Below, piece after piece: positions 56,771 through 57,880 of a stretch of DNA of 64,000 nt. Position 1 is the stretch's first letter. Every line of letters begins with the position of its first letter. Source of the DNA: Candidatus Saccharimonadota bacterium (GTDB lineage Bacteria; Patescibacteriota; Saccharimonadia; Saccharimonadales; Saccharimonadaceae); contig JAFWHC010000001.1 in NCBI GenBank assembly GCA_017512095.1, forward strand, positions 71,099-135,098, given 5' to 3'. The position numbers and the translations under genes are program-made. A model generated the notes under the pieces. That model had not been told where the DNA came from, searched no databases, and worked only from the letters and a program-made list of their open reading frames with translations.

Positions 56771-57129
56771 GGGGCTGACAAAGCTTAGACGAATTATTAA
56801 CAGATATCAAGCGTTACGATTGAACACCGTAAGTGTTAAATAAGTGCTGAAAACACTGTTGCAAGGCGTGTTGCTTACATGCCTGCTTATGCCTAATTTA
56901 ATTTTATAGGCTGGTCTATTCTCAAGATTCCGTAGAGGATAGATTATCATACGACGGGATTAAGGGTTTCTTAGTGACGAGAGAAACTTCGAAAAAAATA
57001 GTCAAGGCAGCTTAGAGTTTCGTTTCTTGCCGCTCTAAACGAGATGCCGAGACAAAACAGGAAACTATGAACGTAGAATGATATCCAGTGGTTTTTCGGA
57101 CCCGGAGGCAGTATCCGGCAGCTCCACCA
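56771..57129 (+). ncRNA. ssrA: tmRNA (one-piece); tag (A)AENTVARRVAYMPAYA* at 56846-56896
   Basis: GGGGCUG/CAGCUCC-A-CCA acceptor with G3.U; resume context AUAAGU-GCU; T-arm CCGGA-GGCAGUA-UCCGG. Confidence 0.95.
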
Positions 57130-57151
57130 AGAATTGAGTAAAAAAGTTATA

Positions 57152-57180
57152 CACCTCCATAGTACAGAGGTGCTTTTTTT
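57152..57180 (+). terminator. ssrA terminator
   Basis: CACCTC/GAGGTG stem, T7 tail. Confidence 0.8.
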
Positions 57181-57202
57181 GTGCGTTCGGAGATAAAGTC
57201 AA

Positions 57203-57313
57203 AGAAAAAGACCGGTAACTGCGAGGAAAACCGGTCTTTTTGTGTAGAGTGTGGAGTTATTTTTGGCTAAAATGTTTGTTTTTGGCTTTGAATAATTATT
57301 TTATTCAAAAGCT
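57203..57313 (-). ncRNA. Candidate ~110 nt small RNA
   Basis: TTGACA(57343-48)-17-TATACT(57320-25) on minus strand; 5' hairpin; A/C-rich middle; terminator 57205-57241; no ORF. Confidence 0.6.
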
Positions 57314-57516
57314 AATACCAGTATAGCGCGCAAAAACGCTTGTGTCAACACTTTTTTGCATAAATTTTTTATGAATTTTGATGAGTTTTCCACAAGTGAA
57401 GAACAGAGAAGAGCGTAATTTGGTGTAAAAAATACAACACGTTTGTTTAACACATTTAACAGGGGAAAAGTAGGCTTTTGTTGTAAAAAATAATTTAAAA
57501 ATGTTGAACAAAAATA

Positions 57517-57545
57517 TTGCATTTTTGTGTCGATCGTGCTAGAAT
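57517..57545 (+). promoter_or_regulatory. Strong sigma70 promoter with no associated ORF
   Basis: TTGCAT-17-TAGAAT plus TG extension and AT-rich UP-like tract upstream. Confidence 0.75.
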
Positions 57546-57549
57546 GTAA

Positions 57550-57880
57550 GAGTCGAAAGACAAAATAAACACTAAAAACAAAAAGAGAAAAAATGAAGTA
57601 TAAATAAGGAATAAGCTGGCGGTGCGAATAGGCAATTTCTAGCCATAAATTACATATAGGAATTGCCTTAAGCTTCGCCAGTTTGAGTGAAGCGCTGTTC
57701 GAGGACTTTTCGTTAGTACCTTAAAACAATATAGAACGAAAGGGAATCAACAAGGACATGCTCCACAATTGTGGAGCGGTCAAGCGGCTAGAGCGAGGAA
57801 CAAGGTTGCGGCCAATAGTAAGTTTTAATGCCGGATAACCTCCCTCGCTTTGGTCCAAAGGAGAATAAAATTACGACTTG
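57550..57880 (+). ncRNA. Candidate ~330 nt structured RNA of unknown family
   Basis: At least seven helices visible by eye downstream of the strong promoter (see findings). Confidence 0.6.

Follow-up and report, generated by a model that had tools for sequence, protein, structure and literature searches.

A candidate regulatory small RNA of Saccharibacteria with a conserved terminator loop complementary to a second small RNA and to a surface-protein mRNA

Introduction

RNAIII and other Hfq-independent small RNAs (sRNAs) of Gram-positive bacteria carry C-rich or UCCC-like motifs, in loops or unpaired, that pair with the ribosome-binding sites (RBSs) of mRNAs for surface and virulence proteins. 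Here we describe a candidate sRNA, named sRNA1, whose predicted layout can be compared with theirs. It lies in a 64,000-nucleotide (nt) stretch of DNA, referred to as the window, from a genome of the genus Candidatus Nanosyncoccus (Saccharibacteria). The source genome (G000) comprises 625 kb in 8 contigs and is 92% complete; the window is C5:71099-135098, and coordinates are window positions, with sRNA1 numbered on the minus strand unless stated. Based on our analysis, sRNA1 is a predicted, previously uncatalogued regulatory RNA gene of about 110 nt in gut and rumen Saccharibacteria.

RNAIII of Staphylococcus aureus acts without Hfq, makes a loop-loop (kissing) contact and binds the same mRNA at a second site as well, and uses a terminator-proximal hairpin as an interaction module, all of which we propose for sRNA1 as well. 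However, sRNA1 is smaller (113 nt), encodes no peptide, has the loop CUCGCAG rather than UCCC, would contact the 3' terminator loop of its target, and belongs to the Saccharibacteria lineage; no sequence or Rfam relationship connects the two. The RsaE/RoxS sRNAs of Firmicutes share with sRNA1 a length of about 100 nt, a 5' hairpin, unpaired and repeated C-rich seeds for G-rich RBSs, and an intrinsic terminator. Unlike them, sRNA1 carries the motifs CUCCACA, CUCUACA, and CUCGCAG (CCUCGCAG) without CCCC, and thus lacks the at least two unpaired CCCC/UCCC motifs by which that group is recognized; it has no Rfam match at E <= 1, and its candidate target is not a central-metabolism gene.

Loop-loop recognition is known from OxyS-fhlA and from the plasmid antisense pairs CopA-CopT and RNAI-RNAII, in which, as predicted for sRNA1, 6-11 complementary nt lie in the loops of both partners and two separated contacts are made per target. 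In contrast to these systems, sRNA1 is a trans-encoded chromosomal RNA with no antisense relation to its putative partners, and has a terminator hairpin as one of the loops. Finally, decoys or sponges such as chb-ChiX, SroC-GcvB, and AgvB show that a second RNA with the recognition sequence of the mRNA can titrate a regulator, a role that we consider below for a second small RNA, sRNA2. Unlike those examples, sRNA2 is a free-standing gene with a consensus promoter and a terminator and has its site in a 5' hairpin loop, and its decoy role is putative.

Our literature search turned up no regulatory sRNA described from Saccharibacteria or from the wider Patescibacteria/candidate phyla radiation (CPR), in agreement with an initial reading of the window from its letters and open reading frames (ORFs), hereafter the sequence-only reading, which had placed the locus in a lineage with few described sRNAs. 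The proposed sRNA1 circuit provides a testable candidate for the way in which epibionts with genomes of about 0.6-1 Mb control their host-facing surface proteins. If true, it would be the first such conserved circuit of regulatory RNA to be put forward for bacteria of this ultrasmall, epibiotic kind. The analysis yields an order-wide RNA family, a partner sRNA, and a candidate target among fast-evolving surface proteins. The proposed contacts are defined to the nucleotide and hence open to mutation and compensatory mutation, and the covariance models R1 (sRNA1) and R2 (sRNA2) can be used for annotating metagenomes and metatranscriptomes.

Anatomy and conservation of sRNA1

The sequence-only reading had described a minus-strand promoter followed by a 5' hairpin, a linker, a C-rich seed, and a terminator. 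Every one of these features was recovered at its position (Table 1), and together they outline the independent, non-coding gene of sRNA type that had been proposed, with an unstructured seed, an intrinsic terminator, and no ORF under conservation. The promoter was the best among 5 promoter-like sites in 3.5 kb; the number of such sites equals the shuffle expectation, and therefore the consensus match by itself is weak and proves nothing. Rather, sRNA1 stands out from chance because the promoter, the structure, and the gene are conserved among relatives. The predicted RNA (57313-57195) folds at -23.5 kcal/mol, compared with -10.3 +/- 2.6 kcal/mol for shuffled sequences (z = -5.07), and none of 200 shuffles was equally stable. 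With its own promoter, a Rho-independent terminator, and a predicted transcript within 50-300 nt, sRNA1 falls into the class of trans-encoded base-pairing sRNAs; computationally, it also has a conserved unpaired seed and conserved complementary sites in RNAs encoded elsewhere.

We rejected a protein-coding reading of the locus: ATG is absent from the window copy, a UUG mini-frame falls out of frame among 19 homologues, and no ORF is conserved across relatives. A search of 57201-57348 against Rfam 15 gave zero matches at E <= 1 or at gathering thresholds, RsaE included; the sole hit in the vicinity is the tmRNA on the opposite strand. Identity with the signal recognition particle RNA or 6S RNA was likewise discarded, as the fold differs from the single long rod or hairpin of those RNAs and Rfam was negative. 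We consider it very probable that sRNA1 is a real sRNA gene.

A 171-nt stretch representing sRNA1 was found by BLAST in 21 of 24 genus genomes at 77-93% identity. The conserved block extends from about 57396 to 57200 and ends short of the terminator of the neighboring transfer-messenger RNA (tmRNA). With R1, for which the window copy scores 122 bits, sRNA1 was detected as a single copy in 87 of 101 genus genomes, including 64 of the 66 high-quality ones. Outside the genus, 20 of 201 genomes, belonging to other families of the order, carry weaker homologues. Lack of conservation of promoter and seed in close relatives had been named as a refutation by the sequence-only reading, and both are conserved: the two promoter hexamers are kept around a spacer of variable sequence, and the seed, CCACACUCUAC, hardly varies among members of the genus. 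In the upstream box, TGTGGAAAAC is nearly invariant over 19 relatives and its flanks are not.

The structure is supported by covariation. The lower stem of the 5' hairpin shows compensatory changes (CG/UA, UA/CG/GC), and its upper part, UGAAUAAAAAAAUUAUUCA, is conserved across the order. Of the cells in the alignment across the order, 95.4% pair, and both sides vary in 16 of 20 pairs, a result reached by 0 of 500 shuffles and set against 41-49% in slid controls; the alignment was fitted to the model, which favours structure, and the margin is large. In the terminator stem, which differs from species to species, all 10 modelled pairs vary on both sides across the order, with 97.4% of cells paired, and the enclosed loop UCCUCGCAGU is invariant in 19 of 19 full-length genus sequences. 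Distant homologues retain UGAAUAAAAAAAUUAUUCA of the 5' hairpin, CCAAAAACAAAAA of the linker, and CUCGCA(G) of the loop, and the CUCC-containing seed fades. Thus the terminator loop CUCGCAG is the most conserved element of sRNA1 across the order. The terminator appears to be more than a terminator, its loop being a predicted functional element that the sequence-only reading had overlooked.

Loop complementarity between sRNA1 and sRNA2

sRNA2 was found by scanning for hairpins with CUGCGAG loops. A scan for UGCGAG loops in G273, a genome of another genus, also identified an sRNA2-like RNA. The 5' hairpin of sRNA2, AUUUGAACAA[UCAACAAACUGCGAGG]UUGUUCAAAU, presents the loop AACUGCGAGG and is followed by a short single strand with UGACCU and by a strong terminator with a U tail; a single-stranded segment, UAUGACCU, is conserved. 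The gene is convergent with a tRNA gene, lies near the 16S 3' end, and has no match in Rfam. R2 detected sRNA2 in 19 of the 22 Nanosyncoccus genomes searched, along with 2 of 2 genomes of a second genus (G273 and G246), and did not detect it beyond these two genera, the model being small. The 5' hairpin is 95.7% paired and covarying, with a conserved loop. Variable stems around fixed loops, the pattern of the kissing-loop class, were thus found in the sRNA1 terminator and the sRNA2 hairpin, as well as in the terminator of the surface-protein mRNA described below.

In each of 20 genome pairs compared, the loops of sRNA1 and sRNA2 can form 7-10 contiguous base pairs (mean 9.3; 10 in the source genome), and shuffled loops reach at least 7 contiguous pairs in only 0.4% of trials. 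Beside the CUCGCAG:CUGCGAG core, the flanking pair reads U:A in Nanosyncoccus, and G273 and G246 have G:C there (genus g19; sRNA1 ...CAGG / sRNA2 CCUG...). This exchange from U:A to G:C is a compensatory double change across a genus boundary and counts as a single event. A second pairing considered by eye, between UGACCU of sRNA2 and the AGGUCA of many sRNA1 copies, was rejected because it is inconsistent and missing in the source genome. Based on these comparisons, sRNA1 is best described as a predicted new sRNA family with a partner family, sRNA2, outside any Rfam family.

The two genes also have an upstream element in common. A TGTGGAAAA box lies 5-8 nt upstream of the sRNA2 -35 in most species, and the same box occurs upstream of sRNA1; the source genome holds 13 copies, compared with about 5 expected. 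A transcription factor with a small regulon may bind at this box. It (TGTGGAAAA, CTTGTGGAAAACTC) was also seen upstream of some other promoter-like sites (G000:C5:6479/6567 and C8:4836).

Loop and seed matches in a surface-protein mRNA

The candidate target mRNA encodes a fast-evolving LPXTG-type (IPNTG) surface protein. Pfam assigned no family to this 359-amino-acid (aa) protein, and in a sample of 11 orthologues identity to the source-genome protein was only 26-44%. The IPNTG protein is the last of a cluster of secreted or anchored proteins, in which its 314-aa neighbor has a sub-threshold WxLIP_PGBD match.

Complementarity to sRNA1 was found at both ends of the mRNA. In 23 of 25 full-length orthologues, the loop of the 3' terminator contains (A/U)ACUGCGAGG (CUGCGAG) on stems that differ widely, and between it and its cognate sRNA1 loop 7-11 contiguous Watson-Crick pairs are possible (11 in the source genome). 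In the 5' untranslated region (UTR), a hairpin with covarying stems sits between the stop codon of the upstream gene and the RBS. Its loop is UGCGAG in about 13 of 26 species, (U)GUGGAG in 3 of 26, where it pairs with CUCCACA of sRNA1, and UUGUGUAGAG in 4 of 26, where it pairs with CUCUACACAA. The CUCUACACAA extension is present in sRNA1 of three of the four UUGUGUAGAG species, the source genome included; in the fourth, sRNA1 was not recovered. Each form of the 5'-UTR loop is complementary to a different conserved sRNA1 motif.

The seed provides a further match. In the source genome, the target RBS GAGUGUAGAGUUAUG is complementary to ACUCUACAC over 9 base pairs (bp), or to AUAACUCCACACUC at 13 of 14 positions. 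The exact pattern GTGTAGAGTN{0,1}ATG has 64 matches in 60 of the 101 genus genomes, compared with 7 for the reversed control, and 26 of 30 fetched matches are the RBS of orthologous signal-peptide proteins. Variant pairs agree with each other: the variant RBS of G021, GUAGAGUGU-AUG, still pairs with its sRNA ACACUCUAC (given also as ACACUCUACU), and the variant sRNA of G002, CAUACUCUAC (also CCAUACUCUAC), pairs with GUAGAGUAUG, by which the A.C mismatch over the start codon is gone. Across 21 genome pairs, the duplex energy between the sRNA body and the last 80 UTR nt had a mean z of -3.0 relative to dinucleotide shuffles. The target 3' UTR often contains AUACUCUAC(A), which has the sense of the seed and is complementary to the RBS of its own gene, and hence a long-range pairing in cis is also possible.

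The sequence-only reading had taken the CUCC seed for an anti-Shine-Dalgarno (anti-SD) element that would be selective because only a subset of mRNAs carry SD sequences. The premise was borne out, as the SD core occurs at -20 to -5 in about 37% of genes and in 8% of control windows, and the 16S 3' end has the canonical CCUCC. Generic anti-SD action was nevertheless rejected: 8-mers complementary to the seed are not enriched at gene starts, CTGCGAG has 45 copies genome-wide against about 60-69 expected, and CUCC is lost in distant homologues. What survives of the claim is a seed complementary to one specific, non-canonical RBS, GUGUAGAGU-AUG, and not to generic SD sequences.

Two further RBS observations were made. 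Outside the window, a type II Cas9 gene (G000:C5:45696-49847, minus strand) has the RBS AACUGUGGAGUUUUUAUG, in which UGUGGAGUU is a 9-nt complement of the seed AACUCCACA; this could be a second sRNA1 target or chance. In G020 (L101, C33), the target 5' UTR holds ACUCGCAGUU and GCUCUGCA, the latter complementary to the variant RBS of the same gene, UGCAGAGC. This arrangement looks like a putative anti-RBS in cis that would replace, or add to, the sRNA acting in trans.

Proposed mechanism

We propose that sRNA1 would act at two sites. Site 1 would be its terminator loop CCUCGCAGUU, making a kissing contact with hairpin loops that carry (A)ACUGCGAGG. The three candidate loop partners are the 5' hairpin of sRNA2, the 3' terminator of the surface-protein mRNA and, in about half of the species, the 5'-UTR hairpin of this mRNA. 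Site 2 would be the single-stranded seed CUCCACACUCUAC(AC), which is predicted to pair with the RBS and start codon of the mRNA, GUGUAGAGU-AUG, or, in some species, with the 5'-UTR loops UGUGGAG or UUGUGUAGAG instead. Binding may be nucleated by the kissing contact; seed pairing would then cover the RBS and AUG, so that translation of the surface protein would be repressed. sRNA2, having the same loop as the mRNA, could titrate sRNA1 as a decoy, and the TGTGGAAAA box may place the two sRNA promoters under one regulator.

Searches by tblastn with Hfq of Bacillus subtilis and Escherichia coli gave nothing at E <= 1 in the 92%-complete source genome, and no CsrA homologue was found there, which fits a kissing-loop mode of action. 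The case is built from the gene anatomy, the stem covariation, the conserved complementarities, and the one compensatory change, all read by comparison of genomes, and from these we infer in which direction regulation would run and that sRNA2 would be a decoy. On balance, we lean toward the view that sRNA1 acts through these loop and seed pairings as an Hfq-independent kissing-loop sRNA. That it represses this surface protein specifically is a more tentative proposal, to which we give slightly less than even weight. The most extended form of the model seems doubtful as a whole: an ancient, order-wide sRNA with a dedicated kissing terminator loop, built in Nanosyncoccus into a three-part circuit (sRNA1, the decoy sRNA2, and the surface mRNA) under a shared TGTGGAAAA-box regulator, which would set the surface-protein level and host contact.

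Several points weigh against these proposals. The direction of regulation and the decoy role are inferences, as said above. The target was found by a complementarity scan, which introduces selection bias in the source genome, so that the independent evidence is the conservation elsewhere; moreover, the genomes are related, and counts per genome are not independent events. When the genes of the source genome are ranked solely by duplex energy, the target comes only 12th of 592, genome-wide scans of this kind being too noisy to decide, and the lack of enrichment of seed-complementary 8-mers at gene starts has been noted. A 5' hairpin is absent in 4 of 26 target UTRs. In addition, the coding end of the upstream gene contains the predicted target promoter as well as the 5' portion of the "UTR"; therefore, part of the conservation in this region reflects coding constraint.

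The distribution of the partners is also uneven. sRNA1 is order-wide, and a profile search did not find the target protein in other genera; G004 has both sRNAs and only a remnant of the target. The target mRNA is therefore not the ancestral or sole partner of sRNA1. Conversely, G086 (99% complete) keeps the target loops, and sRNA1 was not detected there, possibly owing to an assembly gap. In G273, several terminators besides these have loops with CUCGCA or UGCGAG (Table 1), and there may be more partners, or a lineage preference for such loops that would account for part of the loop similarity.

As side observations in the same genome, the rplJ leader has a terminator hairpin with the loop CAGUGCGAGAA, and sRNA1-like (U)CUCGCA(GU) loops are present in two terminators, one following an L21-like gene and the other an 845-aa ORF.

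Alternative explanations

The uneven distribution bears on the alternative in which sRNA1 and sRNA2 form the real functional pair, as a mutual sponge or antagonist or as a two-RNA switch controlled by one TGTGGAAAA-box regulator. The surface mRNA would then be a secondary, genus-specific acquisition or unregulated, and the output would run through UAUGACCU of sRNA2 or the sRNA1 linker on other targets. The sRNA1-sRNA2 loop pairing in all 20 genome pairs and its compensatory change across the genus boundary fit this explanation, as do the genus restriction of the surface-protein family, the target remnant in G004 beside both sRNAs, and the conserved single-stranded UAUGACCU, which has no assigned partner. 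However, the mRNA has three separate conserved complementary sites, at the RBS, in the loop of the 5' hairpin, and in that of the 3' terminator, which would be difficult to account for if the RNAs did not interact, and sRNA2 was not detected outside two genera, although R2 is small. We therefore regard this alternative as unlikely.

A second alternative concerns the order-wide elements other than the terminator loop, namely the 5' hairpin UGAAUAAAAAAAUUAUUCA and the A-rich linker, for neither of which an RNA partner was found. sRNA1 could be chiefly a protein-binding sponge or scaffold, in which a KH-domain or S1-like protein recognizes the linker CCAAAAACAAAAA together with the A-rich loop of the 5' hairpin, with the complementarities being incidental or secondary. 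The source genome encodes a KhpA-like KH protein, and A-rich tracts similar to the linker occur in the target 5' UTR (CCAAAAUAAACA) and in the conserved non-coding block next to sRNA1. Such A-rich leaders may, however, be mere unstructured spacers in an AT-rich intergenic context, and no protein partner of sRNA1 was identified. The partner RNAs carry complementary rather than identical motifs, which together with the compensatory change points to RNA-RNA pairing, and we judge the protein-binding explanation to be quite improbable.

Linkage to ssrA and neighboring features

sRNA1 is linked to ssrA, the tmRNA gene, which is not part of it and has a terminator of its own. The two lie no more than 1 kb apart in 113 of 120 Nanosyncoccus loci; among these 113, 48 are convergent, 34 have the tmRNA and then the sRNA, 31 have the sRNA and then the tmRNA, and 0 are divergent. 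The linkage thus persists through repeated inversions. Convergent linkage also occurs in other families: in 10 of 20 loci of distant homologues, a convergent tmRNA lies within the 1.5-kb flanks. An explanation in which sRNA1 is not trans-acting, and a promoter-terminator unit is kept beside ssrA for a cis reason (insulation, or interference with convergent tmRNA transcription via a bidirectional terminator), would account for this linkage and for the sRNA1 terminator also being readable on the plus strand as a hairpin plus T-run, but it is very improbable, because the RNA sequence is conserved in all three relative arrangements, tandem ones included, an insulator needs no invariant loop, conserved seed, stem covariation, or conserved 5' hairpin, and sRNA1-tmRNA complementarity is absent (z = +0.7). 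The same z value led us to reject sRNA1-tmRNA pairing as the cause of the linkage.

Table 1. Features of the sRNA1 locus and of the related loci. Positions refer to the window unless a contig is given.
Feature	Position	Strand	Remarks
sRNA1 predicted transcript	57313-57201	-	~113 nt; predicted start is A (purine) at 57313
Sigma-70-type promoter, TTGACA-17-TATACT	57348-57320	-	Preceded by an A-rich tract
-35 TTGACA; -10 TATACT	57348-57343; 57325-57320	-	Spacer 17; 11/12 consensus matches
5' hairpin, GCUUUUGAAUAA-AAUAA-UUAUUCAAAGC	57312-57285	-	Covarying lower stem, conserved upper part
Unpaired linker, CAAAAACAAACAUUUUAGCCAAAAAU	57284-57259	-	A-rich, G-poor; core CCAAAAACAAAAA kept order-wide
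Single-stranded seed, AACUCCACACUCUACAC	57258-57242	-	Two CUCNACA repeats; complementary to the RBS GUGUAGAGU(U)AUG
Terminator hairpin	57241-57205	-	12-bp stem, arms 57241-57231 / 57215-57205; U-rich tail after
Terminator apical loop, UUUUCCUCGCAGUUA	57230-57216	-	15 nt; conserved element CCUCGCAGUU; proposed kissing loop
Upstream box, CTTGTGGAAAACTC	57396-57383	-	~35 nt upstream of -35; candidate transcription-factor site
tmRNA gene ssrA	56771-57129	+	Rfam RF00023, 79 bits; not found by ARAGORN; convergent with sRNA1
Terminator of ssrA	57151-57180	+	Separate from sRNA1
Conserved non-coding block	57421-57880	+	Divergent from sRNA1; no Rfam match
sRNA2 gene	G000:C6 ~1413-1290 (transcript ~1373-1290)	-	Own TTGACA-17-TATACT promoter
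Candidate target gene	C8:18326-17247	-	359-aa protein: signal peptide, IPNTG sorting motif, transmembrane helix, basic tail
Secreted/anchored protein cluster	C8:17247-22760	-	Six proteins: 266, 283, 210, 315, 314, 359 aa
CUCGCA or UGCGAG loops in G273	C1:592300-592560, 612320-612360, 765720-765760		Another genus

Several assemblies break inside sRNA1 near the seed start (contig ends G001:C27, G010:C18, G013:C33, and G019:C47), and G012 has two full sRNA1 copies. These breaks and the double copy might reflect a strain-level inversion or rearrangement at the locus, and, taken together with the ssrA linkage, the breaks might mark DNA inversions that rewire it.

At the target locus, the C8 cluster resembles the WxL/Csc cell-surface-complex loci of Firmicutes. 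Beside sRNA1, the divergent non-coding block moves with the sRNA1 and tmRNA module in relatives. It begins with an A-rich segment like that of the target UTR and contains a palindromic hairpin, GCUCCACAAUUGUGGAGC, with CUCCACA and its complement.

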